Virus record (IMG/VR): IMGVR_UViG_2563366924_000005
Location: 1 to 40,849 of that record
Direction: 5' to 3' (one strand)
Length of the DNA: 40,849 nucleotides
DNA from: a virus
Lineage: Duplodnaviria; Heunggongvirae; Uroviricota; Caudoviricetes
Position numbers and translations under genes: made by a program
Notes under the pieces: model-generated
The model's database searches: none
What the model was told of the DNA's origin: nothing
What the model saw: only the letters and a program-made list of their open reading frames with translations
Part shown: positions 1,009-40,849 of the stretch, piece by piece
How the letters are laid out: each line of letters opens with the position of its first letter
How positions within the stretch are numbered: position 1 is the stretch's first letter

Positions 1009-1083
1009 GTCCTCTTAGTTAAATGGATATAACGAGCCCCTCCTAAGGGCTAATTGCAGGTTCGATTCCTGCAGGGGACACTA
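1009..1083 (+). tRNA. argW: tRNA-Arg (anticodon CCU), argW; integration target, forms attL
   Basis: Cloverleaf readable by eye: acceptor GTCCTCT/AGGGGAC, anticodon stem AGCCC/GGGCT with loop CTCCTAA (anticodon CCT), T-arm GCAGG-TTCGATT-CCTGC, discriminator A at 1080; the three bases after it (1081-1083) read CTA, not an encoded CCA. Confidence 0.85.
1054..1069. repeat. 16-nt segment of argW T-arm (ttgcaggttcgattcc), left copy of a direct repeat; candidate att core
   Basis: Exact 16/16 match to 40614-40629 (18/19 including one mismatch to the left); lies in the tRNA 3' half next to the integrase gene. Confidence 0.6.
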
Positions 1084-1244
1084 TTTATCAGTTCGCTCCC
1101 ATCCGTACCAGTACGCAAAATCCCCTGAATATCAAGCCTTCCGTAGATTCACAGTTCGTCATGGTTCGCTTCAGATCGTTGACAGCCGCACTCCGTGACG
1201 GGTAAAAAGTGGATAAAATAATTTTACCCACCGGATTTTTACCC

Positions 1245-2423
1245 ATGCTCACCGTTAAGCAGATTGAAGCAGCAAAGCCGAAAGAAAAACCATACCGCCT
1301 TCTCGATGGTAATGGCCTGTACCTTTATGTCCCTGTATCCGGGAAAAAGGTATGGCAGCTTCGCTACAAGATTGACGGTAAGGAGAAAATCCTGACTGTC
1401 GGAAAATATCCGCTTATGACTTTGCAGGAGGCAAGGGATAAAGCATGGACTGCGAGGAAAGACATCTCGGTTGGCATAGATCCGGTAAAAGCGAAAAAGG
1501 CTTCGTCTAACAACAATTCCTTTAGTGCCATTTACAAGGAATGGTACGAGCACAAGAAGCAAGTGTGGTCTGTAGGGTATGCGACTGAACTTGCCAAAAT
1601 GTTTGATGACGACATTTTACCCATCATCGGCGGTCTCGAGATTCTGGATATTGAGCCGATGCAACTGCTGGAAGTAATCCGCAGATTTGAAGATCGCGGT
1701 GCAATGGAGCGAGCCAACAAAGCCCGCAGAAGATGCGGCGAGGTTTTCCGTTACGCTATTGTCACTGGTAGGGCTAAATATAACCCGGCACCTGACCTTG
1801 CTGACGCCATGAAGGGATACCGCAAGAAAAACTTCCCGTTTCTTCCTGCAGACCAGATCCCGGCATTTAACAAAGCACTGGCAACATTTTCAGGAAGCAT
1901 CGTATCGCTCATTGCGACCAAAGTTTTACGCTACACAGCCCTAAGAACAAAAGAGCTTCGTTCCATGCTATGGAAGAACGTCGATTTTGAAAACAGGATT
2001 ATCACCATCGACGCCAGTGTGATGAAGGGACGCAAAATTCATGTGGTTCCTATGTCAGACCAGGTGGTTGAACTTCTCACTACGCTAAGCTCAATCACTA
2101 AACCAGTATCAGAGTTTGTTTTTGCCGGTCGCAACGATAAGAAGAAGCCAATCTGCGAGAACGCGGTATTGCTTGTGATCAAACAAATTGGCTATGAGGG
2201 TCTGGAAAGCGGTCACGGATTCAGGCATGAATTCAGCACGATTATGAACGAGCACGAATGGCCTGCTGATGCTATTGAAGTGCAACTGGCACATGCCAAC
2301 GGCGGATCTGTGCGCGGGATTTACAACCATGCTCGGTATCTCGATAAGCGCAGAGAAATGATGCAGTGGTGGGCGGACTGGCTTGATGAAAAGGTGGAGT
2401 GTTCCACCTTAACTATCGAATGA
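1245..2423 (+). CDS. intS: Tyrosine integrase, IntS-type (KplE1/CPS-53-like), transcribed away from argW
   Basis: ORF 1209-2423; from MLTVKQIEAAKPKEKPYRLLDGNGLYLYVPVSGKKVWQLRYKIDGKEK the protein matches my recollection of E. coli IntS; C-terminal HxxR...Y catalytic region (GHGFRHEF...RGIYNHARY); ATG at 1245 preferred, GTG at 1209 possible. Confidence 0.85.
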   Translation: MLTVKQIEAAKPKEKPYRLLDGNGLYLYVPVSGKKVWQLRYKIDGKEKILTVGKYPLMTLQEARDKAWTARKDISVGIDPVKAKKASSNNNSFSAIYKEWYEHKKQVWSVGYATELAKMFDDDILPIIGGLEILDIEPMQLLEVIRRFEDRGAMERANKARRRCGEVFRYAIVTGRAKYNPAPDLADAMKGYRKKNFPFLPADQIPAFNKALATFSGSIVSLIATKVLRYTALRTKELRSMLWKNVDFENRIITIDASVMKGRKIHVVPMSDQVVELLTTLSSITKPVSEFVFAGRNDKKKPICENAVLLVIKQIGYEGLESGHGFRHEFSTIMNEHEWPADAIEVQLAHANGGSVRGIYNHARYLDKRREMMQWWADWLDEKVECSTLTIE

Positions 2424-2492
2424 CACAAATCCTTGCAATCCAGTGCAAAGCTTTGTGTAAGAGCATCTTGTTGTTTTAATTAACAAATAAAC

Positions 2493-2519
2493 TTATTTTG
2501 ATTTTAGCAATCAAAATAA
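2493..2519. repeat. Perfect 11-bp inverted repeat (ttattttgatt / aatcaaaataa, 5-nt spacer) between convergent int and tailspike genes
   Basis: Seen directly in the AT-rich 156-bp gap between the int stop (2423) and tailspike stop (2580); possible bidirectional terminator or protein-binding site. Confidence 0.3.
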
Positions 2520-2579
2520 AATATTAACAATAATGCACAAAAAAATCACTTGCAATTTAATTGTAACATCAAATGTTCA

Positions 2580-4475
2580 TTACAATATTCTAACTTCACC
2601 GTATACGCTCAATATTTTATCAGGAACCAGATCGCTTCTACCTTTAATTTGAACATATGGCAAATCATCAGTATTTAATTCCAAATTTGTAGAAAAGAAT
2701 ACTCCACCACCACTCTGGATTGAGCTACTAAATTCAAAGAACTCACCAGACATGAATAACCCTTTCAGTCTTACACTTCCAGACTGATGATTTACAACTA
2801 TGTTCACACTTAATGTCTCAACTGAATTATGAATTGCAGATGTCTTTAGTAACAATGTTGAATTACCAAAATCTATCCACTCAAACCCATATTCACCATC
2901 AAGACCACCTGAAAATTTACCAGCATAATTACCAGTTAATATAGAGTTGACGACATTTCCGCTAACTCCATTTATTTTCTTCCTCTGGTCTATTCTGTGA
3001 TTAACTCCAAAATAACCTTCAGGAACAATTAAGTCTCTGGTACTAGACGCAACAGAGTCATAAAATTCAACCCTTACACCATGACCATAAGTGTTTTCCT
3101 TTGTTTTTAATATCCTCCCAATGTTATCAGCATTTTCAAACCTGTTACTTCCAGAAATAAATATTTCACTAGCTGGCGTATCTGCATACCCAACAAAAAA
3201 CATTGAGTCCTTAGAGATAAAATTTACATAGTTATTTTCAAGTAATGATGAAAATACATAACTACCAAAATAAACACCAACATCATCGACATTTTCGATG
3301 TATGAGTTACATAATTTGAAATCATAAACAGCGGCATTAAATTGTATGCCAACAGTGCAACCTTCAACAGAAATACCATCCATTACAAGCGATGTTACAG
3401 GCCCATCAAATCTATATTGCATTTGGGCATTTGTTGCAATCAGTCTTGTAAATTCGTTTAAATTATGCGCCCCGCTAAAAACAAATCTATCACCCAAATA
3501 TTCCTGCGGATATTCAAAAACAATATTATCCAATTTAAGGTAGTAGTTATTGTGTGAGTGAATACCAAATGATGAGCAATTGCAAAATATATTTTTAATC
3601 TCACACCCATGATGCCAGTCTTGAATCCTTAGGCAGGCTGAACTCAACCTATTATTATCTGTGCTTGATATAATAGAGAAATTTGATAATGAGATATACT
3701 TACTGTAATGTGAATCATCACTAGAACCAAAGTTGCTTACAAGCACACCGTTATCATTATAATATCCACTCTCAAAAAGAGTAATATCTGAAAGCATGTT
3801 GAATACGCAACCGCATCCATCTATAATTTTTTGCTTTGCCCTCTCAAATGTTTCATCGAAATTTTGAGGTATAATTAATGTTTTTTTTATGCCATATACC
3901 TTACCTGGAACTCCAATTATTTTTTTGTTTCCATTAAATGCCTCTTTTATTCCTGCTTGAATGTAGTCAGAGCAGTCAATATTTGATGTGTTCCCATTAA
4001 TGTCTGGCGGTATGAAATCATCAAAAGAAAGTGTTTCCCTTAATTTAATTAATGATGTCGTGCCTTTTGCATTGTTTTCACTCTGAATGAATCCTATATA
4101 TTTTGAACCATCGTTTCCAGACAATCTTTCTTCAAGCTGATCAGGGTCATACTTCAGCACATTAGGAAAATAGAATTGCTGCGCTCCATACGCATCGTAT
4201 ACAGCCATAGAATGGCCTTGCACAGTTACGAATTTGGCAATCTGTCCGTTATATACCGGATACCCGCCAGCGTTAATGATGATTGGTTGCGAAACAGGAA
4301 CGTGAGAGCCGTCTTCGTTCTCTACATAAACCTGAATCTGGTTTTCAGGATTTACCGGGTCAGTGTCAATTTTACCGATATAAATTTTGCCATTGGCTAC
4401 GGCTTTAAAAGAACGCGCCATAGTGAAGAGTTGCGAAGGCATCGATACGATCACATTGGCTGTAATGTCTGTCAT
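2580..4475 (-). CDS. Tailspike protein: P22 gp9-type N-terminal head-binding domain fused to a divergent receptor-binding/depolymerase domain
   Basis: N-terminus [47 protein letters not shown]...[15 protein letters not shown]...NVLKYDPDQ closely matches the recalled P22 tailspike N-terminus; the remaining ~500 residues are unrelated to P22 gp9 and the DNA is visibly AT-rich. Confidence 0.85.
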
Positions 4476-4575
4476 TTAATTTGCTCCAGATACAATGAAT
4501 CGCCGCAGCGTGGCCACGGTGAATTTTGGGCATAAAAAAACCCAGCCGAAGCTGGGTCGTTGCGTTGGTTATCTG

Positions 4576-5454
4576 TCAGTAGTTATGTACTGAAGGAGGT
4601 AATTCTTTATTCTTAAGTCTCATCCATGCGGAAAGATTCGTTGGTCCGTCTGGCTCATTGATATCAACATCTCGTGTGTGATTGATTAAAACGTCTCTCG
4701 CCATTCCGATAACATACGAGAATTCATGACCGTAGTCGTAGCATCTGCCGGAATAGTTCGATTGAATTTGTTTCAGCGCCGGATACAGTTCGCGGAATAA
4801 TGCCTGTGAGCGGTTAGCATAATCCCATAGCCATACAAGGCTGTTTGCTTCTTTTGCAGAAAGCTCGTTGACTTTCCTCTCTTGTTTGCCGATGAACTCT
4901 CCTTCAAGCACTACCCTGTGGATGTACTCTACGGCCAGCGGGATTTGTTCAATTGAAAGTTCATCAATGCTGTCAATACCAAAACGCTGATGAACCATAT
5001 TGTATGCATCGTCATAGCGAAGTCCTTTCTTTCCTACCAGCATGTTTACTGCATCGCGTAGCGGCGTTCTTTCCTCAACAGTGGTTTTCTTGCCTTTCAC
5101 ATACTCGCCATGTTTGCGAATTGAAGGTAGAACTTCTGCTGTTACCCACTTGCGGAATTTGTGCGGGACCGAACCTTTATTGACAGCATCGCGGCAGCGC
5201 AGAACCAATGTATACATACCTGATTCGCTAACAATGCTTAGATTCTGCTCACCACCAAGGGTGTAACTTAAAGTTACTCCCTTTTCATCGTCATCAAGTG
5301 CAGTAAGCGCCTTGCGTGAGTTAGTCAGGGTTAAAGCATCACAAACATCTTTTGCTACAAACCACGGCTCACCGCATTTGTTGATGACGCGGATTTCACT
5401 GTCGCCGAATTTGAAGATGGTGAAATCGTTTTGTGCCTTTGCTATACTTTTCAT
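4576..5454 (-). CDS. ant: Antirepressor Ant (Bro-N/AntA N-terminal domain)
   Basis: ORF 4576-5520; likely start at [11 protein letters not shown] (ATG 5454) with AGGAAA ribosome-binding site; [30 protein letters not shown] is a Bro-N-type motif; immI position next to arc and tailspike as in P22. Confidence 0.75.
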
Positions 5455-5516
5455 GTCAATATTTCCTAATCCGATTTGTTGATACCGAAGCCCTGACTGT
5501 TCCCGCAGTTGGGGCT

Positions 5517-5690
5517 TCAACTTTTTGCTAGATTACCTTTAGAACTATCCCGCCTTAAACTATCCACTAACCGCATTACCATCTCGGTATTTATTGAGCG
5601 ACCATTTTCTTTCGCTGACTTCTCGATTGCTAACTTAACCTCTAATGGGATGCGCAAAGGGTACTTTGGTGCGTCTGACTTGACTATCAT
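5517..5690 (-). CDS. arc: Arc-like ribbon-helix-helix repressor
   Basis: 57 aa from ATG at 5690 with GGAGG 5 nt upstream; ...[29 protein letters not shown] resembles P22 Arc (..REVLDLVRKVAEENGRSVNSEIYQRV..); directly upstream of ant. Confidence 0.75.
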
Positions 5691-5708
5691 ATTACCTCCA
5701 ATCAATTT

Positions 5709-5778: not shown

Positions 5779-6015
5779 ATGTCACGCGAAGAGCCGCAAA
5801 TAAATATCAGGATTTCCAAAGAGTTAAAGGCAAAGGTTAAAGCCAGGGCGCAACATAACAAGCGTTCCATGAATGCTGAAATAATACAGATTATCGAAGA
5901 TGCTGTTTGTGGTAGATCGCTTAATAGCAATGAATTTGCTCAGAAAGAGGCTGACAAATTCAGGGATGCGCTGATTGAAACACTGAAAACCATGTATGGT
6001 AAGGATGCAAAATGA
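5779..6015 (+). CDS. mnt: Mnt-like ribbon-helix-helix maintenance repressor
   Basis: 78 aa; MSREEPQINIRISKELKAKVKARAQHNKRSMNAEIIQIIEDA resembles P22 Mnt (MARDDPHFNFRMPMEVREKLKFRAEANGRSMNSELLQIVQDA); strong GGAGGTGG ribosome-binding site; divergent from arc. Confidence 0.8.
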   Translation: MSREEPQINIRISKELKAKVKARAQHNKRSMNAEIIQIIEDAVCGRSLNSNEFAQKEADKFRDALIETLKTMYGKDAK

Positions 6016-6221
6016 ATAAAAAACAGTTTATTAAGTCAAAAACATCAAGCAAGGAAGAGCTAGAGAAAGAGCTAAACTCCCTGAAATATGCTCTGTGTCT
6101 GGTTTACTCAAGACTGCCAATGGAAGATAAAAACGCTATTTACAATGAAATGATTAGCAGCCTTGATTTTAACGATAGAGACCTAGCATCCCACCTCAAC
6201 AGCTTCCGCGTCCCTGAGTAA
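6012..6221 (+). CDS. Hypothetical protein (69 aa), translationally coupled to mnt
   Basis: ATGA start/stop overlap with mnt; AT-rich; no recognisable motif. Confidence 0.4.
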   Translation: MNKKQFIKSKTSSKEELEKELNSLKYALCLVYSRLPMEDKNAIYNEMISSLDFNDRDLASHLNSFRVPE

Positions 6222-6381
6222 TTCTGTTGCGGATTTGCTTCTTGCGGTGGTTTAGGCTGGAGAGCTTGGCTTCTGCTTCCGATATTTGCGCATCCAGATC
6301 TTTAAGTTCAAGATCTGAAAGTCGCTGGTCAAGCAGGGTTTGATTCAACTCGATGTTGTTCAGGCGTTCTTCTATGGTCAT
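6196..6381 (-). CDS. Hypothetical coiled-coil protein (61 aa)
   Basis: ORF with AAGGT ribosome-binding site upstream of ATG 6381; heptad-like sequence LSDLELKDLDAQISEAEAKLSSL; may be a shadow ORF. Confidence 0.25.
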   Translation of the reverse strand: MTIEERLNNIELNQTLLDQRLSDLELKDLDAQISEAEAKLSSLNHRKKQIRNRITQGRGSC

Positions 6382-6406
6382 ATTGTTACCTTAGTGGGAG
6401 ATTAGT

Positions 6407-6631
6407 ATGGTTTCTGCTATTTTATCGGTGCTGCTAGCGTCATTATTCATCGGAGTGGTGTTGATCTCCCCGATGCCAATAATATCAATATTATTCATCT
6501 TGATGATCGGCTGGTTGTGGCTTAAAAAGGCAAGAAACGATTATTTTTTATCCATAAGAGATAAGCAATTGGAGCTTTTCCGCTTGGGGTACACTGGCGA
6601 CTTGCCATTCTTAACATACCAAAAAAAGTAA
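6407..6631 (+). CDS. Small membrane protein (74 aa, two predicted TM helices)
   Basis: Hydrophobic segments LSVLLASLFIGVVLI and IISILFILMIGWLWL; followed by a rho-independent terminator; last gene of the mnt-side transcription unit. Confidence 0.45.
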   Translation: MVSAILSVLLASLFIGVVLISPMPIISILFILMIGWLWLKKARNDYFLSIRDKQLELFRLGYTGDLPFLTYQKK

Positions 6632-6637
6632 TAATCA

Positions 6638-6659
6638 AGCCGGGTCACTCCGGCTTTTT
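6638..6659 (+). terminator. Rho-independent terminator closing the mnt-side operon
   Basis: Stem agccgg/ccggct with 6-nt loop followed by TTTT, seen directly. Confidence 0.5.
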
Positions 6660-7010
6660 GATATGTCGCTCGCAGAACTCAACAAGCCTGCTCATTAAGT
6701 AGCAGTAAGTCTCGTTGGCTCTTCCTGGTTCAACATCAACACCGACCCTTGAGCAGATATCGAATGCCATGTGAGCGCACTCATGGGCAATGGTAGATAG
6801 TTTGCCATTGAACACGCCTATCACATGCAAAACACCATTCTCGCTGCTCATTGTATGAGACGCTCCGTTGGCATCCGAGTCCTGCACGTCCACGCCAAGT
6901 TTTTGATGCAGGCGTTGCCATTCTGGAAAGTCTCTGCAAAACACAATCGTACCGCTCTCAAAGAGCGGTACGAGCATCTTTGGTACGTTTCCAATGTTTA
7001 CTTTTTTCAT
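6645..7010 (-). CDS. Hypothetical protein with HExxH motif (putative zinc metallopeptidase-like), 121 aa
   Basis: Protein-like translation containing HECAHMAFD; weak GGA ribosome-binding site; overlaps the N-terminal extension of plus-strand ORF 6825-7361, so one of the two readings is wrong. Confidence 0.4.
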   Translation of the reverse strand: MKKVNIGNVPKMLVPLFESGTIVFCRDFPEWQRLHQKLGVDVQDSDANGASHTMSSENGVLHVIGVFNGKLSTIAHECAHMAFDICSRVGVDVEPGRANETYCYLMSRLVEFCERHIKKPE

Positions 7011-7040
7011 GGTATCCTGCGAAAAACTAAGGAGGTTGGT

Positions 7041-7361
7041 GTGTATATATCGCTATCTACCATTTTTTTCATCTGCTTAGCTATTTGGATTTTAAGAATA
7101 TGGCAGGATTGCTCTGTCAGCCATGCTGCTGCGGTGAGAAATAAAAACGCCCTCATAAAAGAAGCTGAAAACGTTGTCTTATCAATGGATCACCTTTCAT
7201 GGACCGAGATGACTACAGGGCAACAAGAGGTTTATGAGTGTGCGATTGAGCGGTTAAGGCTGCTTAAATCGTACAAAAAGAACCACGCACCCGACTCATT
7301 CCCATTCCTGAAAGAATGGCCGAGATGGTATGACCCGAAAAAAGCAACCATCAACCGCTAA
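7041..7361 (+). CDS. Membrane-anchored hypothetical protein (about 106 aa) at the sieA position
   Basis: GTG at 7041 lies 5 nt after a strong AAGGAGG site; N-terminal TM helix ISLSTIFFICLAIWILRIW; position between gp16 and mnt is where P22 carries sieA. Confidence 0.45.
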   Translation: MYISLSTIFFICLAIWILRIWQDCSVSHAAAVRNKNALIKEAENVVLSMDHLSWTEMTTGQQEVYECAIERLRLLKSYKKNHAPDSFPFLKEWPRWYDPKKATINR

Positions 7362-7369: not shown

Positions 7370-9376
7370 TTACTGCTGGGCTTTCTCACTTGAAGCCTGA
7401 ATTAGAGGTGTAAGAGTTTCAGATACCCGTCTGATCGCTCTATCATAAGCAGTACTTCCTTTTGGCGTGTTTGCTAACTTTAGTAATGCGTTCCTCATCG
7501 CGCGTGACTCATAGCCCCTGCCAGCCATACCGATACCAGCTCCAACTGCCGCAACTTTTGCAAACATTGGATTTGTAACAGACGCAAGAGCTGTTATCAG
7601 CGCTGCTGGACCAGCTACCATTTGCCCTGTTAGTGGGCTTGCGGCAGCTGTAGCTGCCTGTCTAGTGGAATCAAGATATTTCATTATCCCATCAAGCTGT
7701 TTCCCATGCTCTCCTCTGAAGAACGTCTCAGCCTGCTTCCGATTCCTTTTCATTTCATTAATAAACTTCTCAACGCTAAGCTTTCCTGAATCGCTTGTCG
7801 CCTTATCCATTGCACGCTGAACAAGTGCTGCTCTAGCATTTTGACGCCCACTATCATCAAGCAATCGATAAAGTTGCGCCCTTTCCGCTGGGCTTTGGCT
7901 GAATACTAGTTTAGTGACATCTTCTGGCGTTGTTTTACCACTCTGAATAGCTTTTTGGACACGTGTATTGCTCATCATGTCGTTGAACTTTGCCCAAGAA
8001 CGATCAACACGCGACATGTTTTGCGCTTCCTTCGCACCTAGTTTTGCGCCAACCGCTTTTTTCATGTCTGTTGTGTATGCGTTATAAACAGACTGCGCAG
8101 CTTTCTCCAGCGTATCTCTATCGACCTCGTCAGGTGCTGCCATAAAGCGCTTACGTAAGTTTGTACGGTTTTCTCTAGCTAATTGCAGGTTATTTGGACC
8201 GCTGGTGATGTCATTTCTAAACTGTTGAAGGACAGAAACAGCTGAGCGGTCTTGCGATACTCCTGGGCGAGTTAACTTGGAAATCTGCTCATCAATTGCT
8301 TTCACTGTTCCAGTGATGTCAACAGGAGTATCCCCCATCAAACTGATGATCCTGTCGTACCGCTTGCCAGCAGCCTGAATAAATTGCTGCTGACCACGAG
8401 TAGCTGATTGGTAAAGTTGTGCGTCAGATATTCCACCAACATTATCGCTAAATGTTCTAACTAAATCTTCCCTGGCCTTTTGCTGTGCATTTCTTATCCC
8501 ACCTGTTCCGGCTATTGGGATTCGCTCAGCCATAGCTCGTGCTTGCTTACCAATATTTGTTCCCGGTTCCACAAGATCTGTTGTCATCAGTGGCAAGTTG
8601 TTCTGCTTGGCAAAGTCAATCTGAGCTTGTTTTTCAGGAGCAATCTTACCCATAGCAGAACGAGACACTGCGCTTGCGGTGTTTTCTACACCCTTCAGTA
8701 CCCCACCAAGACCAGCAGAAATTGCAGTTTGAACTGGATTAACATTCTCACCGCCAGCGATCTTAGTGGCACCCTGTAAAGCTAAATCAGTAGCGCCTGA
8801 TTTTAGTGTTGCACCTACAACAGACGCAGCTCTACCTGCTGGAGTGAATGCAAGAGCATTTGCCAAGAATGACGTTATATCCTGCGGTGACAAACCAGGC
8901 TTGTTAAGTGCATATTCCCCTGAAGGAAGGGTGACTATGGAATTTCCCTTCTCATCCTTCCGGATTTTCCCGCCAATACTTTGCAGTATTTTCTCCTGTG
9001 AAGCGTCTGAACCAAATAGCTGCCCCAATCCAGCACGCAGCGCATCAGTGCTTAAGCTATTAAGCTCTGGAGCAGACCCAACATTTTGCAGTCTCTCCAT
9101 TTCTGGTGTCATTCGGCTTTCACCGGTAACGGCATCGCGCATTGCAGCACCTAAAACAGCCCCTTGCTCAGCAGAGCGATCTAGTCCTTCCTTCTGCTGA
9201 GTGGCAATCTGTGCATATCCTGATGCAAGTGAGTTGTCTGCTGGCGATTGCTGAACACCTTGTTGTGTTGGTGCTGACTGACCAGCAAAATACTCATCAA
9301 TGGCGGTGCCAATATCTTCGGTGCTCGTACCATCAGGAAAGGTAAATGTCTTACCGTTTGCAGTTACTTTCATCAT
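7370..9376 (-). CDS. Ejection/DNA-transfer protein, P22 gp16 homolog
   Basis: 668-aa ORF in the P22 gp16 slot (gp7-gp20-gp16 order conserved); Gly/Ala/Gln-rich composition typical of ejection proteins. Confidence 0.7.
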
Positions 9377-10788
9377 TCCACCGTAAATTGAATGCCTGAT
9401 TTTGAGGTATATGATCCAACCTGATTCCGTGGTTCTCCTGAAGGTGTCGAATCTTGTGCTGGCGCTGCGTCAGTATTCATTGACATATACCGCTTAACGG
9501 CACTCCCCAATGATTCACCTTTTTTAACATCCAACCCCAATATCTGACCGCCATTACGCGATTGTCCAGGGTTGCCATTCGCGCTCATCCACTCAGCTTT
9601 AAACTCATTAAACTGCGCGTTTCGTCGCTCAAGGTTTGCCATTGCATCAAGCCATCTTGCGACAGTCTCAGGGTTATCCATGTCAGTTGGTGCACCCTGA
9701 CGAACGATCTCAACGTCTTTATCCGTTGCTGGGCCGGGAGGTAGGAATTTAAGAACCTGACTGTTAACAAGGGCATTTTGGCGAATGCGCAAATCACGCA
9801 ATGTCGTATCGCTTCCGGTAAGTTTTGCGAACATGTTCTGTGCGTTACCGAACAAACCTGTCGTTGGTTTTTCTGCTCTGAACTGTTGAGCAAGCGCACT
9901 CATAGAATTGGCTGAGTTTGATGATGCTGTGGCATTGTTTACAGCCGTCTCGATGCCTTTTTCCATATTTACTGACAGCTTAGGTGCTTCGCTAATCAAC
10001 TGCTGAGCCTTTTCCTGCGCTTGCTGCATCTTAAACCCGAACTCTTGCTGATCCAGAGCCAAGCGTTGTGCTGCGATATTGTGCCCAGTCATTGCTGACT
10101 GATAGGAAAGGTTTTGCCCTCTCGCCTGAAGTGCTTCACCAGCCTGATTGCTGCGGATTGTCTCTGCCAGCCTGCCTCTGTCAATTTCACGACCAGCCAT
10201 CTTATCCTGAACAGCAAACGCCTTTTCTGGTCCAAGCGCACCGAGAGACATAGTAGTCAGCATGTGTGATAGCTGCTCTGGATTCTGGATACCTGTCTGA
10301 ATCATCCAGTCAGCATTCGCCCCCACGCGATTTAACCTGTCCTTGTTGTCAGTAATGAATTTACTGTAGGCTTCCGGTCCCTGAGAAAGAGCGACGTTAG
10401 CCCTCATGGCTAAATCGCCCATATCGTTGCGTTGCTGATCATTAAGACCGGAAAACGCCTGTTGTGCCTGTGCAACAAACGCTGGATTTTCCTGGGCAAA
10501 CTTAAATAGTCCCGATGGATCACCAGAAGCCCATGCATCAGCGTGAACCTTATTGAACGCACTAATCGCTTTCTGTTGCTGTTCCTGATTGTAAATATCA
10601 GCAACTCCAGCCAGACCACGTAACGCGGTCAGACCAACGTTATTTGCACCTGAGCGAGCCAGTTCATTGTTTTCGCGGATCAGACCAAGCGTTGCGTTAA
10701 TGTCGCTTGCCTTTGGCGCATTCTCATTTTGCGTACCGATGCCAGCCAGAAAACCACCAGAATTAATACCCTGTTGCCACGTAGCCAT
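9373..10788 (-). CDS. Ejection protein, P22 gp20 homolog
   Basis: 471 aa, the same length as P22 gp20; synteny; overlapping stop/start with gp16. Confidence 0.7.
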
Positions 10789-10798
10789 TGATTACCCC

Positions 10799-11491
10799 TT
10801 AAAACAACGAGCCAAGCAGACCAAGACCGCCGCCGATCGCAGCCCCCCACGGAGTTGATGAACCAATTAATTTCGCAAGTCCGGCCCCAGCAATAGCACC
10901 AGACGCACCTCCGCCAATAGCAGATTGCATTGCTGATGGTCTGTTGGCATTTGCCGCTGCAAGAGCCGCACTTTGCTGCGAAATCTGACTCATATTGTTG
11001 GCATATGTTTGCCCGGCGTTTGCCTGACCTTGCAGTGCGCCAAGACCAATATTTGCCAGATTCTGGTAGTTGTTCATCTGACCAGACAGCCACTGCTGAC
11101 CAAGCGTTGGTGCGATTGTTGCTAACTGATTACCGGTTGCAGTGGAACCCAATCCACCTGTTGCTTCCGCTGCCGCCAGACTCTGATAGCGAGCCTGACC
11201 AGCAAGATCTTTGTACTGCTGAGAGTTGTAATACTGGTTAAGTGCCTGACCTTGCCCTTCCAGAGACGATAAGTTCTCGAGGCTACCGACATACTTATCA
11301 GCCAGAGGAGTAAACGGCTTCAGGTTGTTCATGATGGTGTTGAACTGCTGATTTTGCAGGTCTGCGGCATACTTCTGAGCTTCTGCTGCATACTTTGCGC
11401 TTTTATCAGAACTGCCACCTTTCCCGCCTTTTTCAGGGCAATAAGGTTCCTCGCCACGCAGTTTTCTGCCTAGCTTAAATGCATATAACAT
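10799..11491 (-). CDS. Ejection protein, P22 gp7 homolog
   Basis: 230 aa (P22 gp7 is 229 aa); synteny between gp14 and gp20. Confidence 0.7.
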   Translation of the reverse strand: MLYAFKLGRKLRGEEPYCPEKGGKGGSSDKSAKYAAEAQKYAADLQNQQFNTIMNNLKPFTPLADKYVGSLENLSSLEGQGQALNQYYNSQQYKDLAGQARYQSLAAAEATGGLGSTATGNQLATIAPTLGQQWLSGQMNNYQNLANIGLGALQGQANAGQTYANNMSQISQQSAALAAANANRPSAMQSAIGGGASGAIAGAGLAKLIGSSTPWGAAIGGGLGLLGSLF

Positions 11492-11493
11492 GG

Positions 11494-11949
11494 CTATCTC
11501 CTGTGATTCAGGAAGTCGATTAGTTCTTCGCGTGTGGCGCTGTAAAAAGTCACGTCATCCACGCCTTTGAAGTATTTCTTGATGGTTCCTACACGCTTAA
11601 GGCCAATCATTGCGCAGTAAATCTGCCCGTGGCGGAATTTGCGTGCGGCGAACGATGTGACGCACTGAACGGTGGTGTTAGTCAGAATGTATCGCCAGAA
11701 CGCCAGCCCGATTTCCTTGCTGAATCCACGAACCTCTGGCAGGTACATGGCGTGGCAATCGAATGTCAGCGGCTGAATCTCCTGATAGTAAACAATGCCG
11801 CCGAACTGCCCGTGCACGTTCACCTCAAAGTAACGGCAATCATGTTTATAGTCGTATCCATCACCGTTGTTGCTCCCGGCGATAATGTCAGGGTGATTTC
11901 CGACTGCTTCGATCAGGTCGATGTTTCGCGTTGGTTTGAATGTAATCAT
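11494..11949 (-). CDS. Tail accessory / head-completion protein, P22 gp14 homolog
   Basis: 151 aa in the gp14 slot between tail needle gp26 and gp7. Confidence 0.6.
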   Translation of the reverse strand: MITFKPTRNIDLIEAVGNHPDIIAGSNNGDGYDYKHDCRYFEVNVHGQFGGIVYYQEIQPLTFDCHAMYLPEVRGFSKEIGLAFWRYILTNTTVQCVTSFAARKFRHGQIYCAMIGLKRVGTIKKYFKGVDDVTFYSATREELIDFLNHRR

Positions 11950-12587
11950 CAGTCAATCAACCCATGTGCACGCAAGGCGTCTTCCAAAGCCTTAGTGCGC
12001 CGACGCTCAGCAATTAGAGCATTGGCTATAGCCTGGATTTCAGATTGCGTGTAAGTATCGCTAACGGTGAATGTCAGGTCAGCATTGAATACGCCTTTAT
12101 TCGCCGTACCTGTTGCCGCGGTCCATCCAGTCTGGCGAGCGCCAACAACTTTTGTACCGTTAACAGAATAACTTCCTGATACGTTAAGGGATGAGGCAAG
12201 AGTTTGAGTTCCTGCTCTGCTGAGTGAAACATAATCACCGATTATCTCTGATACCTTACCGTCGATATCCTGAACTTTTATTTTCAGACCATTAACATCA
12301 TTCTCTATTTCAAGAAGCTTTACTTTTATTCCTGAAATATCCTCTTCTGTTTTTGCAATTCTTTTTTCGTGCTCATCAAGAATTACATCCTGCTCATCAT
12401 TTCTGACCTGCGCATCATAAGCACCGCCTCCTGCCTGATTTGCCTTTTCTGCAATGGAGCCAACATCAGTACCCTGATTTATGACATACAGAAGGTAAGA
12501 CTGACTGAATATGTTGCGAGGGAGAATAGATGCATCAATGCGTGTAGCCTGAACCACGACAGGCTTATTAAGTGACGGGTCTGCCAT
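11949..12587 (-). CDS. Tail needle protein, P22 gp26 homolog
   Basis: N-terminus [36 protein letters not shown] and C-terminus [22 protein letters not shown]...[36 protein letters not shown] nearly identical to recalled P22 gp26; central coiled-coil. Confidence 0.85.
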
Positions 12588-12590
12588 ATT

Positions 12591-14009: not shown

Positions 14010-14018
14010 TTATTCACC

Positions 14019-14649: not shown

Positions 14650-14688
14650 TGTCTTCTCCCAATAAAAATGGGGCCGAAGCCCCTTAGA

Positions 14689-15948: not shown

Positions 15949-15968
15949 ACTTTTTTAGCTCCGATGGA

Positions 15969-16865: not shown

Positions 16866-16955
16866 TTGTTACCCCTGTTTACTCGATGTTCAGCCCATCG
16901 GAAGGCAATAGGGTGCCAGGCCTCATAAAGACAGCCATTGCACGTTATGGGTTAA

Positions 16956-27557: not shown

Positions 27558-27694
27558 AGGTGAGCCGTGTAGTTGAAGGTTTTTACGTCAGATTCTTTTG
27601 GGATTGGCTTGCGTTTATTTCTGGAGCGTTTCGTTGGAAGGTATTTGCAGTTTTCGCAGATGATGTCGGTGATACTTCGTCGCTGTCGTCTCAT
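27512..27694 (-). CDS. ninE: NinE
   Basis: From [52 protein letters not shown] matches recalled lambda NinE; start taken at the internal ATG of ORF 27512-27784. Confidence 0.7.
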
Positions 27695-28218: not shown

Positions 28219-28661
28219 GCAGCCTTCCCTTTTCGTTGTGACCATTCATACTCTCGCCGGGAGTCATCACTCCATCGCACGTTGCGCTCTGAGCCGAACC
28301 AGAACATGATTTCGATAAGCTCAGTCATGTTGGCCTTTCGCATTTTGCTGGTACGCACGCCAAGCATGACAACGCCACCATCGATACCAGGCACACTTCG
28401 TTGCTCCAGTTTTTTGGTCTTAAGCCACAGGGCAGTGAACAGGTCTTTCCAGTCTTCCGGCGCCAGCCGTTGACCATGCCATAGCACCTGACGCGAAACA
28501 TCGTTCAGCATCGGCCACATACGGTCATTCTGCGCTTTGCTGCGTTTGGGTTCTCTAACGTGGACTTCGTGGGGTGACTTGTCGTCGATGGGTAGTGAGA
28601 GTATTGCGTCTATGGCGTTATTTCTGATTGCTTCGTTGCGAAGCATGTATATTTGCTTCAT
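28215..28661 (-). CDS. ninB: NinB (Orf-family recombination mediator)
   Basis: ORF 28215-28679; ...RSKAQNDRMWPMLNDVSRQVLWHGQRLAPEDWKDLFTA...SKMRKANMTELIEIMFWFGSERNVRWSD matches recalled lambda NinB (..QNRKLWACLGDVSRQVEWHGRWLDAESWKCVFTA..). Confidence 0.75.
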   Translation of the reverse strand: MKQIYMLRNEAIRNNAIDAILSLPIDDKSPHEVHVREPKRSKAQNDRMWPMLNDVSRQVLWHGQRLAPEDWKDLFTALWLKTKKLEQRSVPGIDGGVVMLGVRTSKMRKANMTELIEIMFWFGSERNVRWSDDSRREYEWSQRKGKAA

Positions 28662-28668
28662 CGTTACC

Positions 28669-28875
28669 TCAACTAACAAAACGCCACGCCATTTTTGCTA
28701 CAGCGACAGGCATAACACCGATAATCACCCAGACAAATGCAGCGCCAAACAACGTATACCATGGGTCTTTACCGTCATTCACAAGACGAATGTAGCTATG
28801 CAGAACAATAAAAAACGTCAGAAGAATCCATCCAACGCCAACGCATTTGAGTGCGACGAGCATAAACTCAGCCAC
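28669..28875 (-). CDS. Small membrane protein (about 65 aa, two TM helices)
   Basis: Hydrophobic segments GVGWILLTFFIVL and FGAAFVWVIIGVMPVAV; start is GTG 28875 or ATG 28863. Confidence 0.4.
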   Translation of the reverse strand: MAEFMLVALKCVGVGWILLTFFIVLHSYIRLVNDGKDPWYTLFGAAFVWVIIGVMPVAVAKMAWRFVS

Positions 28876-37099: not shown

Positions 37100-37414
37100 A
37101 TGAAAAAGACTCCATGGGAGAAATGGGAAGTCGATTTCTTGCGCGAAGTATCGGCGACAATGCCAGTTGAAGTTATCGCTGAAAAACTGGAAAGGACTGA
37201 AAAAGCAGTAATGGCGAAAGCAACAAGGATTGGCGCTGACATTGTTAGCCGACTTCGTGGAAGACGCTGGACAAGAGCCGAAGTATCACTTTTCGGTAAG
37301 TTCTCCGCAGAAGAAATAGCAATTGCAACCTGCCGCTCAATTTATTCAGTAAGAGCTATGCGATACAAGCTAAAAAAACTCGATGAAGAAAGAGCAGGCA
37401 TACGAATAAATTAA
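37100..37414 (+). CDS. Hypothetical protein (104 aa)
   Basis: ORF in the early-left operon. Confidence 0.4.
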   Translation: MKKTPWEKWEVDFLREVSATMPVEVIAEKLERTEKAVMAKATRIGADIVSRLRGRRWTRAEVSLFGKFSAEEIAIATCRSIYSVRAMRYKLKKLDEERAGIRIN

Positions 37415-37430
37415 CATGGAGTAATTAACA

Positions 37431-37712
37431 ATGAAGCTGAACATCGACCTCGGAAAATACGTTATTACTGGAACAAAATACGACCTGATTCTTAATGAAA
37501 GAGGAATTATCAAAGAAGGCGAGAATGCAGGGAAAGAAAGACTAAGCCGTATCGGTTATTACAGCAAGTTTGAGCATCTGGTTAAAGAGTTATGCAACCG
37601 TGAAATTCTGTTATCTCAGGCGCAGACGCTACAGGATATTCAGCAACATATCGAGACTTTAGGTGTGTCACTTAGCATGGCTATTGACCAGCTCGTGGAG
37701 AGTAAATCATGA
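37431..37712 (+). CDS. Hypothetical protein (93 aa)
   Basis: ORF in the early-left operon. Confidence 0.4.
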
Positions 37713-37869
37713 GAGGACTTGCATACAATCCCGGCATTCTTCCGGCAGAAATTATTATTCGCCAACGCGTAAAGCCAATGCCATCGAGAGAGGAATTACT
37801 TAAGAGAAATTCTTTTCCATCAGTGAATCAAAACAAATATCTGAATGCGATGTGGCGGAGTGGGAAGAA

Positions 37870-38448
37870 ATGAAACAAATGTCACTAATTGAGATGGATG
37901 GTTTTCTGAAAGGTAAATGCATCCCACGAGATTTAAAGGTTAACGAAACAAACGCTGAATATCTTGTCCGTAAGTTCGGCGAACTTGAATCAAAACTGGA
38001 AACGGCGTTGCGGGAGTGTCGTTCTGCTGGAATCACGATTGATAACCTTGAGGCCAAGTGCGCGGCGCTGGCAGCGGAGAATGCGATGTTGAAGCAACGG
38101 ACACAGCAACTTATCAACATCATTAGTAATACTGACAATGACTACTGCATGTGTGGTTCTGCTATGAAAGACCACGTGCACGGCGGATGTGGTTATCCTA
38201 CTGGCATGTTCGATTATTACTACAACCAGTGGCTGGAGTCAGATAACAAAACCCCAGCCACCGACGCTTTCCTGGCTGAAGTGCGGGCGCAGTGCCTCAA
38301 CGCTTTCATCCAGCATCACAGTGCAGAACTGGATGCGCATATTAAAAACGGTGGTGAGCAGTTCGACGAAAAATCAGTACGCATCAGAGACATCATCGTC
38401 TCAGCCCGCTTGTTCAGGGAGCAAATTCGCAAAGGAGCCGCGCTATGA
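37870..38448 (+). CDS. Hypothetical protein (about 192 aa) with cysteine/histidine cluster
   Basis: ORF 37852-38448, start preferred at ATG 37870 (MKQMSLIEM); [20 protein letters not shown] motif. Confidence 0.4.
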
Positions 38449-38717
38449 GCAAATCATACATCGTTATTCAGCAGTACTGGTGGTGCAACGAGAAAGGCCA
38501 TGGAGTTGAATACACGACAGACGGCGTTGACTTCGATAAGCGCGATAAGGCAATCAAGCATGGTCTGAAAACACAAGGTAGTGATGATTTCAACATCGGC
38601 GTTATCGAAGGCGGTAAGCTTGTTTCCTTCGACTGGATGAATGAGCCAGTGGGTGAAAGTGCAGAGACACTTGCTGAAATTGCAGAAGCCATCGGTTACG
38701 AAGGAACCGCCCAATGA
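38445..38717 (+). CDS. Hypothetical protein (90 aa)
   Basis: ORF, translationally coupled (ATGA overlaps at both ends). Confidence 0.4.
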   Translation: MSKSYIVIQQYWWCNEKGHGVEYTTDGVDFDKRDKAIKHGLKTQGSDDFNIGVIEGGKLVSFDWMNEPVGESAETLAEIAEAIGYEGTAQ

Positions 38718-39115
38718 GCAACATCGACAAACAGGCGTTAAATCAAGAAAAAATTGAATGGCTCAATAAATTAGCTGATATGGAGTATTGCAAAAGCAAT
38801 CCTGGGCATTGGCTGATGAGCTTGAAGGATACAAACATGCTTGCGAAATTGGCTCTGCGCTCAGTGGCGCTGCTGGCATCGCTGGAAGCCGCAGAGAAGC
38901 GAATCGCTGAACTGGAAGCGAATAAGTGTAAGCCAGTGATGTTTATTGATGGCGATATATCGCCTGCTGACGCTGACAAGTTGGCTGCTGTAATTCGCGA
39001 GTTCAACGAAGAAACAGAAACCCCTGCGGCTCGAATGGCGCGGATTATTCGCGAGAACCCGCATCCAACTAACATGTGCGATATGCCAGCCGCTGGCATC
39101 GGTAAGGGGGAGTGA
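38714..39115 (+). CDS. Hypothetical protein (133 aa)
   Basis: ORF, translationally coupled. Confidence 0.4.
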   Translation: MSNIDKQALNQEKIEWLNKLADMEYCKSNPGHWLMSLKDTNMLAKLALRSVALLASLEAAEKRIAELEANKCKPVMFIDGDISPADADKLAAVIREFNEETETPAARMARIIRENPHPTNMCDMPAAGIGKGE

Positions 39116-39546
39116 TGCTTCAACATCAAATGCAGCCAACATTTAACACCTGCATGGCTACCTGCGTTGCAATGGTTGCCGGTCAACCTGTCGATGAGGT
39201 AGTGGAACGCTGGCATCAGAAATTCCACGACAAAACAGACTGGCTCGACGACGCGCTGGATTATTACAAAATCCCGTATTTTTATGGAAGCCAGCGCAAG
39301 GCCGAATTGCTTTACGGGTTTATTTACTTCCTGACCGTTCCGTCACTGAACATCAAAGGCGTCCTGCATCAGATTCTGATGTCGTTAACGGCAGAACGCG
39401 GCATAGAAGTATTTGACCCGGCAATGGGTCGGCCAGGATCAAAATATTACGTTTGGGGTGAAGCGCAGAACGATGATCAATTCGGCGTTATCTCCTGGTG
39501 CGTCGATTTATCGGTTCCGGTAGTGCAACAGAAAGGTGAGGACTAA
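39112..39546 (+). CDS. Putative papain-fold cysteine peptidase, C39-like
   Basis: N-terminal QPTFNTCMATCVAMVAG resembles the C39 Q...C-G-A-C motif; a His (GVLHQIL) followed 16 residues later by Asp-Pro (EVFDP) matches the C39 His/Asp spacing. Confidence 0.45.
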   Translation: MMLQHQMQPTFNTCMATCVAMVAGQPVDEVVERWHQKFHDKTDWLDDALDYYKIPYFYGSQRKAELLYGFIYFLTVPSLNIKGVLHQILMSLTAERGIEVFDPAMGRPGSKYYVWGEAQNDDQFGVISWCVDLSVPVVQQKGED

Positions 39547-39549
39547 CCC

Positions 39550-40323
39550 ATGATCACTATTACCAAAGAACGTATTGAATTGTTCATTAAAAATCCGCTT
39601 GAAAACGGGCTTACCCGTGGTGAACAAATGGAACTGGCACGGATTGCGCTGGCATCGCTCGAAGCGGAGCCGGTGGCGTGGTTGCTGTCAGGAGGCGGGG
39701 CAAAAAACAACGTCAGCTTCGATAGTGGCAATGCTTATGCCGACCCGCTGCGAGAAGTAACGCCGCTTTACACCGCCCCGCCAGCGCCGGTATCTGTGCC
39801 CGCTGCGATGGAAATTGATGATGACTTTGACAGCGCGTTTGAACACGGAAAAGCTGTCGGCTGGAACGCCTATCGCGCCGCCATGCTTCAGGCCGAACCT
39901 GTAAGTAATAGTGATGAGTTACCGCTGGACTATCTGCAAGGACACAAAGACGGCCTGGAGTGGGCTGCACAATTGGCAGAAGCCAATCATCCGCAAACAG
40001 GTGACTGGTTATACGACGACCCAATCGATCTTGCCAGGGCGATTCGCAAAGGTCCGGATATGCCTACTGTTCAGGGTGGCAACTATCCGGTAACTCCGGA
40101 TGGTTGGATAAGCTGTAGTGAGCGAATGCCTGAAAAGGGCCAGAACGTGCTTATTTCGGTGAATTTCGATAGCTCTCTGGTTGAACCGCTAATATGCTCC
40201 GCACGCTATACCGGAAGCACCTTTCGGCGCGGAGATGCAACGATTAAGCCTGGTAATGATATTGAGCAGGCAACTCACTGGATGCCGCTACCGGAACCGC
40301 CGCAGGAGGTAAACCGTGGCTAA
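39550..40323 (+). CDS. DUF551-domain protein (Ea-type early protein)
   Basis: C-terminal ...QATHWMPLPEPPQE is the hallmark ending of DUF551; 257 aa. Confidence 0.55.
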   Translation: MITITKERIELFIKNPLENGLTRGEQMELARIALASLEAEPVAWLLSGGGAKNNVSFDSGNAYADPLREVTPLYTAPPAPVSVPAAMEIDDDFDSAFEHGKAVGWNAYRAAMLQAEPVSNSDELPLDYLQGHKDGLEWAAQLAEANHPQTGDWLYDDPIDLARAIRKGPDMPTVQGGNYPVTPDGWISCSERMPEKGQNVLISVNFDSSLVEPLICSARYTGSTFRRGDATIKPGNDIEQATHWMPLPEPPQEVNRG

Positions 40324-40423
40324 CCTGCAACTTGCCGTTAAAGGTGAATAACAATCCTCGCACTCGCGGGGATTTCTTTTATCTGAACTCGCTACGGCGA
40401 GTTTTGCTTTATGGAGATGATAA

Positions 40424-40591
40424 ATGCACTTTCGAGTCACAGGTGAATGGAATGGAGAGCCATTCAACAGGGTTATCGAAGCAGAGGACATCAACGACTG
40501 CTATAACCACTGGATGCTATGGGCGCAGATAGCACATGCAGACGTAACCAATATTCGAATTGAAGAACTGAAAGAACACCAAGCCGCCTGA
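40424..40591 (+). CDS. Small hypothetical protein (55 aa)
   Basis: GGAG ribosome-binding site then ATG 40424; stop codon embedded in the terminator hairpin; alternative ORF 40332-40532 in another frame starts with TTG and is less likely. Confidence 0.3.
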   Translation: MHFRVTGEWNGEPFNRVIEAEDINDCYNHWMLWAQIAHADVTNIRIEELKEHQAA

Positions 40592-40606
40592 TGGCGGTTT
40601 TTTATT
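40584..40606 (+). terminator. Rho-independent terminator upstream of torI
   Basis: Stem ccgcc/ggcgg, loop tgat, followed by tttttt, seen directly. Confidence 0.6.
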
Positions 40607-40613
40607 GCCTGAT

Positions 40614-40629
40614 TTGCAGGTTCGATTCC
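40614..40629. repeat. Second copy of the argW T-arm 16-mer (ttgcaggttcgattcc), 19 bp upstream of the torI start codon
   Basis: Exact match to 1054-1069; the flanking sequence is not tRNA-like (followed by ctattcggagatagcactc-ATG). Confidence 0.6.
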
Positions 40630-40648
40630 CTATTCGGAGATAGCACTC

Positions 40649-40849
40649 ATGCAACACGAACTACAGCCTGATTCACTGGTTGATTTGAAATTCATCATGG
40701 CTGATACTGGCTTTGGTAAAACCTTCATCTATGACCGGATTAAGTCCGGCGACCTGCCAAAAGCCAAAGTTATCCACGGGCGAGCAAGATGGTTATATCG
40801 TGACCATTGTGAATTCAAAAATAAGCTCTTAAGCCGCGCCAATGGGTAA
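40649..40849 (+). CDS. torI: TorI excisionase / recombination directionality factor
   Basis: 66 aa, MQHELQPDSLVDLKFIMADTGFGKTFIYDRIKSGDLPKAKVIHGRARWLYRDHCEFKNKLLSRANG, recognised as E. coli TorI; winged-helix excisionase; window ends at its stop codon. Confidence 0.9.
   Translation: MQHELQPDSLVDLKFIMADTGFGKTFIYDRIKSGDLPKAKVIHGRARWLYRDHCEFKNKLLSRANG

Follow-up and report, generated by a model that had tools for sequence, protein, structure and literature searches.

A complete-looking P22-like prophage in argW with the IntS/TorI module and two private point mutations in its integration system

The argW site of E. coli K-12 holds the KplE1/CPS-53 remnant, and the question raised by the locus studied here is whether it carries, at the same site, an apparently intact P22-like prophage with the IntS/TorI module, as had been predicted for the window (the whole analysed stretch of 40,849 nt). 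We have little doubt that the region is a 39.85-kb temperate P22-like phage (Lederbergvirus) which has inserted into argW at its 3' end. It is an ordinary, complete-looking P22-type prophage, unusual only in that its integration system bears two private point mutations.

On the host side of attL, yfdC is followed by argW and then by the prophage, and the integration genes occupy both ends of the element:
1-933, plus strand: yfdC, host context and not phage (99% protein identity to K-12 YfdC; K-12 annotation)
1009-1083, plus: argW tRNA-Arg(CCT), 3' end rebuilt by the prophage (ARAGORN, 1009-1081; Rfam tRNA, 63.4 bits; alignment to K-12 and phiv205-1)
1069-1084, plus: attL core CTGCAGGGGACACTAT (agrees with the canonical core at 15 of 16 positions; C-to-T at 1082, core position 14)
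1085-1244, plus: attL phage arm with TAAA-containing arm-type repeats, overlapping the intS promoter (98% identical to K-12 attL)
1245-2423, plus: intS tyrosine integrase, 392 aa (99% protein identity to K-12 IntS)
40649-40849, plus: torI excisionase (RDF), the last prophage gene (protein 66/66 identical to K-12; 100% to Sf6 and Louie)

The original prediction had let the prophage span 1009-40849. A prophage at argW was indeed found, but homology to Sf6, Louie, N7 and the 0H24 episome sets in only at 1069, the base that opens the att core. Phage DNA begins there, and 1009-1068 is host argW. Because the window stops at the torI stop codon, which supplies its last base, the right junction falls outside it. 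This junction was located on the source scaffold L009 (GCA_000351345.1), which is identical to the window over 7300 nt in a stretch that does not include the left end: 74 nt separate torI from an exact attR core (L009 7374-7389), after which come dsdC, dsdX and dsdA. By inserting at the argW 3' end, the phage has duplicated the core CTGCAGGGGACACCAT, with 15 of 16 matches in attL and an exact copy in attR; this 16-nt att core has been published (PMC2951348). Through the C-to-T change at 1082, the encoded 3' end of argW reads CTA and not CCA. The T is private to this element, as attP, attL and attR of all relatives carry C, and T at core position 14 is absent from all 1872 complete E. coli genomes with this attL arm.

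The second private mutation lies in intS, whose canonical stop codon (2400-2402) is changed from TGA to TGT by A-to-T at 2402, which adds seven residues (CSTLTIE). Compared with the 385-aa K-12 protein, the 392-aa IntS has two substitutions, Q134L and Q364R, plus this C-terminal extension. The intS promoter lies within attL (-35 TTGACA at 1179-1184 and -10 TAAAAA at 1203-1208, with conserved 18-bp spacing), and its hexamers agree with the published description (PMC2951348). When attP was rebuilt from attR and attL, the resulting 453 bp aligned without gaps, at 97-98% identity, to the real attP regions of Sf6, Louie, N7 and the circular episome. As predicted, int and the excisionase gene sit at opposite prophage ends, 38 kb apart, with attP between them and the int promoter inside attL, and not in the adjacent, co-transcribed int-xis arrangement of the lambda/P22 type; in the P22 record, int (3104-4267) and xis (4144-4494) are adjacent. 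The assembly of a close relative is a free circle of 39.4 kb that has the order torI-attP-intS. This layout is not new, having long been published for KplE1, HK620, Sf6 and CUS-3 (PMC2951348, PMC3509656) as well as Kapi1 (PMC8787464), and the Sf6 GenBank record annotates the same arrangement.

The interval between intS and torI holds a complete set of P22-type genes. The 13 virion genes of the P22 type are all there, each as a full-length ORF, and follow the canonical order (terS, terL, portal, scaffold, coat, gp4, gp10, gp26, gp14, gp7, gp20, gp16, tailspike) along the minus strand from 21119 to 2580:
20631-21119, minus: terminase small subunit, gp3 (Pfam GP3_package)
19157-20653, minus: terminase large subunit, gp2 (Pfam Terminase_6N/6C)
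16956-19148, minus: portal (Pfam P22_portal 2-594/594; 99% identical to CUS-3)
15969-16865, minus: scaffold (Pfam Phage-scaffold)
14689-15948, minus: coat, 419 aa (Pfam P22_CoatProtein 3-419/423)
14461-14649, minus: small ORF beside gp4
14019-14480, minus: gp4 (Pfam P22_Tail-4)
12591-14009, minus: gp10 (Pfam Phage_stabilise 1-469/469)
11949-12587, minus: tail needle gp26, 212 aa (99.5% identical to Sf101 along all 212 aa)
11494-11949, minus: gp14 (Pfam DUF2824, full length)
10799-11491, minus: gp7 ejection protein (Pfam P22_gp7, full length)
9373-10788, minus: gp20 ejection protein, 471 aa (Pfam Inj_translocase, residues 12-228; full length against relatives)
7370-9376, minus: gp16 ejection protein (phrog_770 1-663/668)
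2580-4475, minus: tailspike, 631 aa (N-terminal P22 head-binding domain and beta-helix receptor-binding domain, low GC, 33%)

Inspection of all 13 genes detected no frameshift or truncation in any of them. The Pfam/PHROG matches are full length in all but three, namely the scaffold (C-terminal half), gp20 (N-terminal translocase domain) and the needle, which was checked against Sf101, itself an isolated plaque-forming phage; such full-length family matches for most virion proteins, as well as the P22 sar RNA described below, bear out the P22-like assignment. The virion genes are also full length beside those of isolated phages: the TerS-TerL-portal-scaffold block shows 96.6% identity to the isolated plaque-forming phage EC.P3 (PQ657771), and the gp14-gp16 block, which encodes the ejection proteins, 98.4% nucleotide identity to the isolated plaque-forming phage N7 (MH717096). 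TerL is a hybrid of a P22-type body and a CUS-3-type C-terminal tail, and the same hybrid occurs in EC.P3. Three candidate defects were rejected: the divergent TerL C-terminus, since the CUS-3-type tail fits the portal and EC.P3 has an identical one; the short needle (212 aa), which is full length compared with Sf101, phage L and ST64T; and the coat protein, only 67% identical to CUS-3, which has a full-length Pfam match and belongs to a 419-aa type found on hundreds of contigs.

The tailspike head-binding domain matches Pfam PF09008 over positions 1-113/113 (E 1.2e-66), as well as the N-domains of Sf6 gp14 and P22 gp9 in the PDB (E 1e-65 to 1e-45). In a tblastn search of sequenced phages, only the N-terminal ~200 aa matched and the receptor domain was absent; megablast gave no match for this domain in complete E. 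coli genomes. A broader protein search found it in a 75-member cluster from draft E. coli genomes and in a Xenorhabdus protein (54% identical). Because the domain occurs in no sequenced phage, its glycan specificity is probably uncharacterised. The interval from intS to the tailspike, only 156 nt, is too short for any O-antigen conversion gene. Next to the tailspike gene, the immI region holds an antirepressor, Arc/Mnt repressors and sar RNA, as in P22:
4576-6015, both strands: immI region (Pfam and Rfam)
4576-5454, minus: antirepressor ant (Pfam Bro-N/P22_AR_C)
5456-5522, plus: sar antisense RNA (Rfam sar, 71.6 bits; gathering score 43)
5517-5705, minus: arc (Pfam Arc)
5779-6015, plus: mnt-like Arc-family repressor (Pfam Arc)
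6012-6221, plus; 6196-6381, minus; 6645-7010, minus; 7041-7361, plus: small accessory ORFs between immI and gp16 (PHROGs of unknown function)

These small ORFs (6012-7361) are 99-100% identical to the 0H24 episome, and PADLOC gave nothing significant for defence genes in the accessory ORFs. The lysis cassette, Q, nin region, replication genes, cI/cro/cII/cIII/N and a RecT module make up the remainder of the element:
21125-22631, minus: accessory ORFs (162-aa ORF, DUF2560, Tad2-like/DUF2829 protein at 22161-22631)
22710-23177, minus: Rz with embedded Rz1 lipoprotein (Pfam Phage_lysis; Rz1 lipobox LAVSGC)
23174-23623, minus: endolysin (Pfam Phage_lysozyme)
23607-23930, minus: holin (Pfam Phage_holin_3_1)
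23935-24555, minus: HNH endonuclease ORF in the late leader (Pfam HNH_3, 1.3e-14)
24618-24692, minus: tRNA-Asn, then a conserved late leader/terminator
24756-25274, minus: Q antiterminator
25271-28875, minus: nin region (ninH, RusA, HNH at 25819-26343, YbcO, Roi, ninF-like, Dam methylase, NinB, small ORF)
28966-31848, minus: replication block, first ORF MarR-like
29253-30164, minus: DnaC-like helicase loader
30149-31045, minus: replication initiator
31048-31848, minus: HNH endonuclease of the replication block
31870-32223, minus: cII (Pfam Phage_CII)
32283-32498, minus: cro (Pfam HTH_3)
32568-33269, plus: cI, LexA-type repressor (Pfam Peptidase_S24 and HTH_3)
33762-34094, plus: N (Pfam N36)
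35151-35321, plus: cIII (phrog_550); the immC/early block also has a DUF7446 gene
35406-40591, plus: early-left accessory and recombination genes (Gp157-like, ead/Ea22-like, DUF551 and others)
35711-36622, plus: RecT of the early-left module

In the late leader, the HNH ORF aligns to the place where Sf6 and the 0H24 episome have a tRNA-Thr, and the immC/early regulators (31870-35321) are 99% identical to phage Louie. The predicted full complement of virion, lysis, replication and immunity genes was thus recovered, with a structural block free of frameshifts; given the attL core and intS stop mutations, however, "intact" is a statement about ORFs only.

In the free phage circle, attP would occupy the ~245-bp gap between torI and intS, and IntS would recombine its 16-bp core with the identical end of argW, a reaction that makes intS the first prophage gene. 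This gene reads away from attL under its own promoter, and torI, the last gene, closes the early-left operon beside attR. Transcription of the two would be separate, with IntS kept low and self-repressed, and derepression of the LexA-type cI would allow N-antiterminated early-left transcription to reach torI and so bring about excision. By analogy, this regulation of excision is taken over from the KplE1 work and may apply here. The other modules needed for the lytic cycle are all present as full-length ORFs, and the prophage may well be able to excise and form particles. Actual inducibility seems to us somewhat probable, and no more than that in view of the two private changes that the recombination module carries.

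A rival reading is a freshly "grounded" prophage, with lytic genes intact and excision impaired by the attL-core mutation and/or the seven-residue IntS extension, which would be on its first step towards a KplE1-like remnant. Both single-base changes fall within the ~1.4-kb recombination module, IntS carries its two substitutions too, and the exact 392-aa protein was found on one contig only in the protein search. KplE1 excision works only within a narrow range of IntS concentration (PMC2951348), a sign that the system may be easily perturbed. However, several strains have IntS proteins of other lengths (396 and 386 aa), which points to tolerance of natural C-terminal variation, and four or five substitutions in 1.4 kb are similar to the 2-4% divergence elsewhere. 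Moreover, attP can be read as inverted hexamers GATGTC/GACACC around a 7-bp spacer (TGCAGGG), and by this reading of the dyad symmetry, which is our own, position 1082 would lie in a predicted core-type binding site and not in the strand-exchange overlap. We consider a grounded state unlikely, and it is quite improbable that attL core C14T and the intS stop loss have just immobilised an otherwise complete prophage. Such a prophage would be a snapshot of the first step of domestication, with K-12 KplE1 as the end product at the same site.

Sequencing or assembly errors in an otherwise canonical module would also account for two single-base substitutions seen nowhere else in a draft scaffold. 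Yet the scaffold copy, which was stored independently, does not differ from the window in their shared 7300 nt (the left end lying outside them), and high-coverage short-read assemblies rarely carry substitution errors, so that we regard such errors as very improbable. It is scarcely conceivable that the element is a defective CPS-53/KplE1-like remnant that merely looks complete. Besides the two point mutations nothing favours this, whereas the element measures 39.85 kb against 10,215 bp for CPS-53 (in line with the roughly 10 kb originally given for the K-12 remnant), all P22 virion, lysis, regulatory and replication genes are full-length ORFs with full-length profile matches, no IS element was found in the prophage, and the virion block (7370-21857) is densely filled with ORFs.

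The complete-looking P22-type prophage is a new mosaic of segments from Louie, EC.P3, N7, CUS-3, Sf101 and the circular 0H24 episome. A search of 50,697 phage records together with 5,426 complete E. coli genomes gave no entry covering at least 80% of either window half, which makes the element a unique mosaic; the best single record, Louie (PQ850616), covers 62% of the right arm (window 20000-40849) at 98% identity. The 0H24 circular episome (NZ_CP081778) matches immI and gp16 at 99.4%, and taken block by block Louie, EC.P3, N7 and this episome are the closest relatives. The middle of the coat gene, the tailspike receptor domain, two HNH genes, the ninB variant and several early-left ORFs had no nucleotide match in Louie, EC.P3, N7 or 0H24. 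As the whole combination occurs in no isolated phage, compatibility of the parts is deduced block by block. HK620, Sf6, CUS-3 and Kapi1 likewise integrate in argW with the same 16-bp att core, a P22-type virion, a lambdoid early region, and the same module (IntS ~99% and TorI, called HkaC or Sf6 gp18, 100% identical; attP between int and RDF). Sf6, CUS-3 and Kapi1 match only 20-47% of each window half at the nucleotide level, and HK620 was compared by its tailspike only. The element differs from these four phages in its tailspike receptor domain, in the private attL core and intS stop mutations, and in lacking any conversion gene (oac, neuO or gtr-type) in the int-tailspike interval. With P22 it shares virion gene set and order (88% nucleotide identity across conserved virion genes), the tailspike head-binding domain and immI with sar RNA; P22 differs in its integrase, in int and xis being adjacent and co-oriented beside attP, and in also having gtrABC. 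KplE1, whose recombination module is the experimentally characterised one, shares the integration site, the attL/attR arms (98-99%), IntS (99%) and TorI (100%), but lacks the virion, lysis and immunity genes that are all present here.

The general biological weight of this element is small, as P22-like argW prophages with the IntS/TorI module are common and their unusual int/attP/RDF layout has already been dissected experimentally in published work. Its main uses are as a complete counterpart to the K-12 KplE1 remnant and as the carrier of a tailspike receptor-binding domain so far in no sequenced phage; should excision be impaired by the two private mutations, the element would also be a natural test case for the sensitivity of the recombination system. 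Among the 5426 complete E. coli genomes, 853 (~16%) carry a full-length P22-type gp10 gene and 1872 (~35%) this argW attL arm.

The original prediction described a P22-like prophage at argW with the IntS/TorI recombination module, and the analysis confirmed this observation and supported its reading. The features on which the following account draws are listed below.

Selected features of the window
1-933, host gene yfdC, with 99% protein identity to K-12
1009-1081, argW, tRNA-Arg(CCT), downstream of yfdC
2580-3870, receptor-binding domain of the tailspike (residues ~200-631), 33% GC
5456-5522, plus strand, sar antisense RNA (Rfam RF00262, 71.6 bits), located upstream of the ant start (5454), in antisense orientation to it, and overlapping the arc stop
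6012-7361, both strands, four small ORFs between immI and gp16, in PHROG families of unknown function
22161-22631, minus strand, Tad2-like (Thoeris anti-defense 2 / DUF2829) ORF of 156 aa between the lysis cassette and the packaging genes
23935-24555, minus strand, HNH endonuclease ORF
25819-26343, minus strand, HNH endonuclease ORF
31048-31848, minus strand, HNH endonuclease ORF
40649-40849, torI, whose stop codon ends on the final base of the window

The phage DNA was found to start at position 1069, which is the exact start of nucleotide homology to Sf6, Louie, N7 and the circular 0H24 episome. At the other end, the junction lies past the torI stop and attR is outside the window; it was sought in public assemblies via the exact early-left protein (39550-40323). 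This protein is present on a single scaffold, KB732598.1 of GCA_000351345.1, and the fetched locus opens with 7300 nt that match the final 7300 nt of the window exactly. There, the canonical att core CTGCAGGGGACACCAT is followed by dsdC, dsdX and dsdA, and these surroundings on the dsdC side match those of the attR of CPS-53 (KplE1), the cryptic prophage remnant of K-12. Because this attR core is located 74 nt beyond the torI stop in the source scaffold, the distance between the two cores, and with it the prophage length, is about 39.85 kb.

IntS shares 99% identity with the K-12 integrase, and TorI does not differ from K-12 TorI. The two genes sit at opposite prophage ends, whereas int and xis of P22 are adjacent, which bears out the predicted departure from the P22 layout. 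By joining the left arm of attR from the source scaffold to the right arm of attL from the window, attP was rebuilt as a 453-bp torI-core-intS segment, which aligned without gaps and with 97-98% identity to the true attP of Sf6, Louie, N7 and the 0H24 circle. This gap-free alignment therefore places the free-phage attP in the ~245-bp gap between torI and intS, as had been predicted for the circular phage. Such an int/attP/RDF layout is established knowledge: the argW module is conserved in KplE1, HK620, Sf6 and CUS-3, with uncoupled transcription of int and the RDF (Panis et al.; PMC2951348, PMC3509656); attP of Kapi1 lies between int and xis, which puts the genes at either prophage end (PMC8787464); and in Sf6 the GenBank annotation puts the attP core between int and the TorI homologue, gene 18. 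In KplE1, intS is transcribed from its own attL promoter and repressed by IntS and TorI, and torI, whose expression is separate, drives excision (PMC2951348). A KplE1-type intS promoter (TTGACA, 18 nt, TAAAAA) is kept inside attL at 1179-1208, and by analogy regulation may follow the KplE1 scheme, with an attL-borne intS promoter, repression by IntS and TorI, and separate expression of torI.

The virion, lysis, replication and immunity genes that had been predicted for an apparently intact prophage are all present as full-length ORFs. These include all 13 P22 virion genes in the canonical P22 gene order (terS, terL, portal, scaffold, coat, gp4, gp10, gp26, gp14, gp7, gp20, gp16 and tailspike), most of whose products gave end-to-end Pfam/PHROG matches (portal 2-594/594, gp10 1-469/469, gp7 1-230/230, coat 3-419/423, gp16 1-663/668). 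The profile matches of scaffold and gp20 were limited to the C-terminal half and the N-terminal translocase domain, respectively, with both ORFs full length relative to those of relatives. Candidate defects in this block were rejected: the short needle (212 aa) has the full length of the Sf101 / ST64T / phage L type, the atypical coat is a common 419-aa variant, and the diverged TerL C-terminus is a CUS-3-type tail found as the same hybrid in the isolated phage EC.P3. In line with the prediction, no virion gene showed a frameshift or truncation. TerL has a P22-type body with the last ~15 residues CUS-3-type (C-terminal end at 19157-19200) and adjoins a CUS-3-type portal (16956-19148), a recombination joint that appears to keep the TerL tail with its cognate portal. 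Also found were a complete lysis module (holin, endolysin and Rz with an embedded Rz1 lipoprotein), late control (Q, a conserved late leader and tRNA-Asn), a complete nin region, a replication module (O-like initiator and DnaC-like loader), the regulators cI (HTH and S24 peptidase domains), cro, cII, cIII and N, and a P22-type immI with ant, arc, an mnt-like repressor and the sar antisense RNA. The placement of the sar RNA supports a putatively working immI circuit. No IS elements or truncated genes were found in the prophage.

The term intact is qualified by two private single-base changes, one at 1082 in the attL core and one in the intS stop codon. The attL core (1069-1084) reads CTGCAGGGGACACTAT, with a C-to-T change at position 14 of 16, so that argW encodes CTA in place of CCA at its 3' end. 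None of the relatives examined has this T in attP, attL or attR, and neither does any complete E. coli genome with this attL arm. In intS, the stop codon TGA is changed to TGT (2400-2402), giving an IntS of 392 aa instead of the usual 385 (added tail CSTLTIE), which also carries Q134L and Q364R. The exact 392-aa protein is present on one contig only; other IntS length variants exist in nature. A less likely rival view is that the prophage is grounded, its lytic genes being intact and its excision impaired by one or both of these mutations. The sequence of attP can be read as a dyad of inverted hexamers, GATGTC / GACACC, around a 7-bp spacer, TGCAGGG, and on the lambda model we infer that 1082 would lie in a core-type binding site and not in the strand-exchange overlap. 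On balance, we lean towards a prophage that is actually inducible.

The phage group is well characterised, and the element is an ordinary member of it. Its attL arm occurs at argW in 1872 of the 5426 complete E. coli genomes, a gp10 gene of the P22 type is present at full length in 853 of the 5426, and the assemblies of strains 0H24 and 0H25 contain a close relative as a free circle of 39.4 kb. The 0H24 record NZ_CP081778.1 ('plasmid unnamed4') is labelled a plasmid but is really an excised P22-like phage with the order torI-attP-intS; both strains also hold the integrated copy at argW.

In a megablast search against 50,697 phage records, P22-like (Lederbergvirus) and lambdoid phages matched in the hundreds; no record covered at least 80% of either window half, nor did any complete E. 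coli genome. The nearest relatives were Louie for the right arm (98%), the 0H24 episome for immI and gp16 (99.4%), N7 for the ejection proteins (98.4%), EC.P3 for the packaging and head block (96.6%) and Sf101 for the tail needle (99.5%). At the protein level, portal, scaffold and gp4 show 99%, 96% and 100% identity to CUS-3; for gp10 the figure is 98.5% against each of CUS-3, 0H24 and Louie. Judged from these matches, the element is a patchwork of known phage segments in a new mosaic combination.

The N-terminal part of the tailspike is the P22 head-binding domain. Searches of sequenced phages and of complete E. coli genomes gave no match to its receptor-binding domain; the cluster to which this domain belongs has 75 members, in draft E. 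coli genomes, and its next relative is a Xenorhabdus ehlersii protein (54% identical). The receptor-binding part is confidently predicted to fold into a parallel beta-helix, as in the tailspikes of Sf6, HK620 and CBA120. The gap between intS and the tailspike spans only 156 nt (2424-2579), without the oac, gtr or neuO-type O-antigen/capsule conversion gene that Sf6, P22 and CUS-3 have there.

Among the accessory genes, the HNH ORF at 23935-24555 comes after a strong terminator-like hairpin in the late leader, where it replaces the tRNA-Thr of Sf6 and the 0H24 episome; neither this ORF nor that at 25819-26343 had a nucleotide match in eight fetched relatives. PADLOC detected no defence genes among ten accessory ORFs scanned and gave no match for the small-ORF cluster at 6012-7361, which occupies the position of the sieA-type exclusion genes in P22. 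A Louie gene with an anti-CRISPR annotation matches the Tad2-like ORF at 99% identity.
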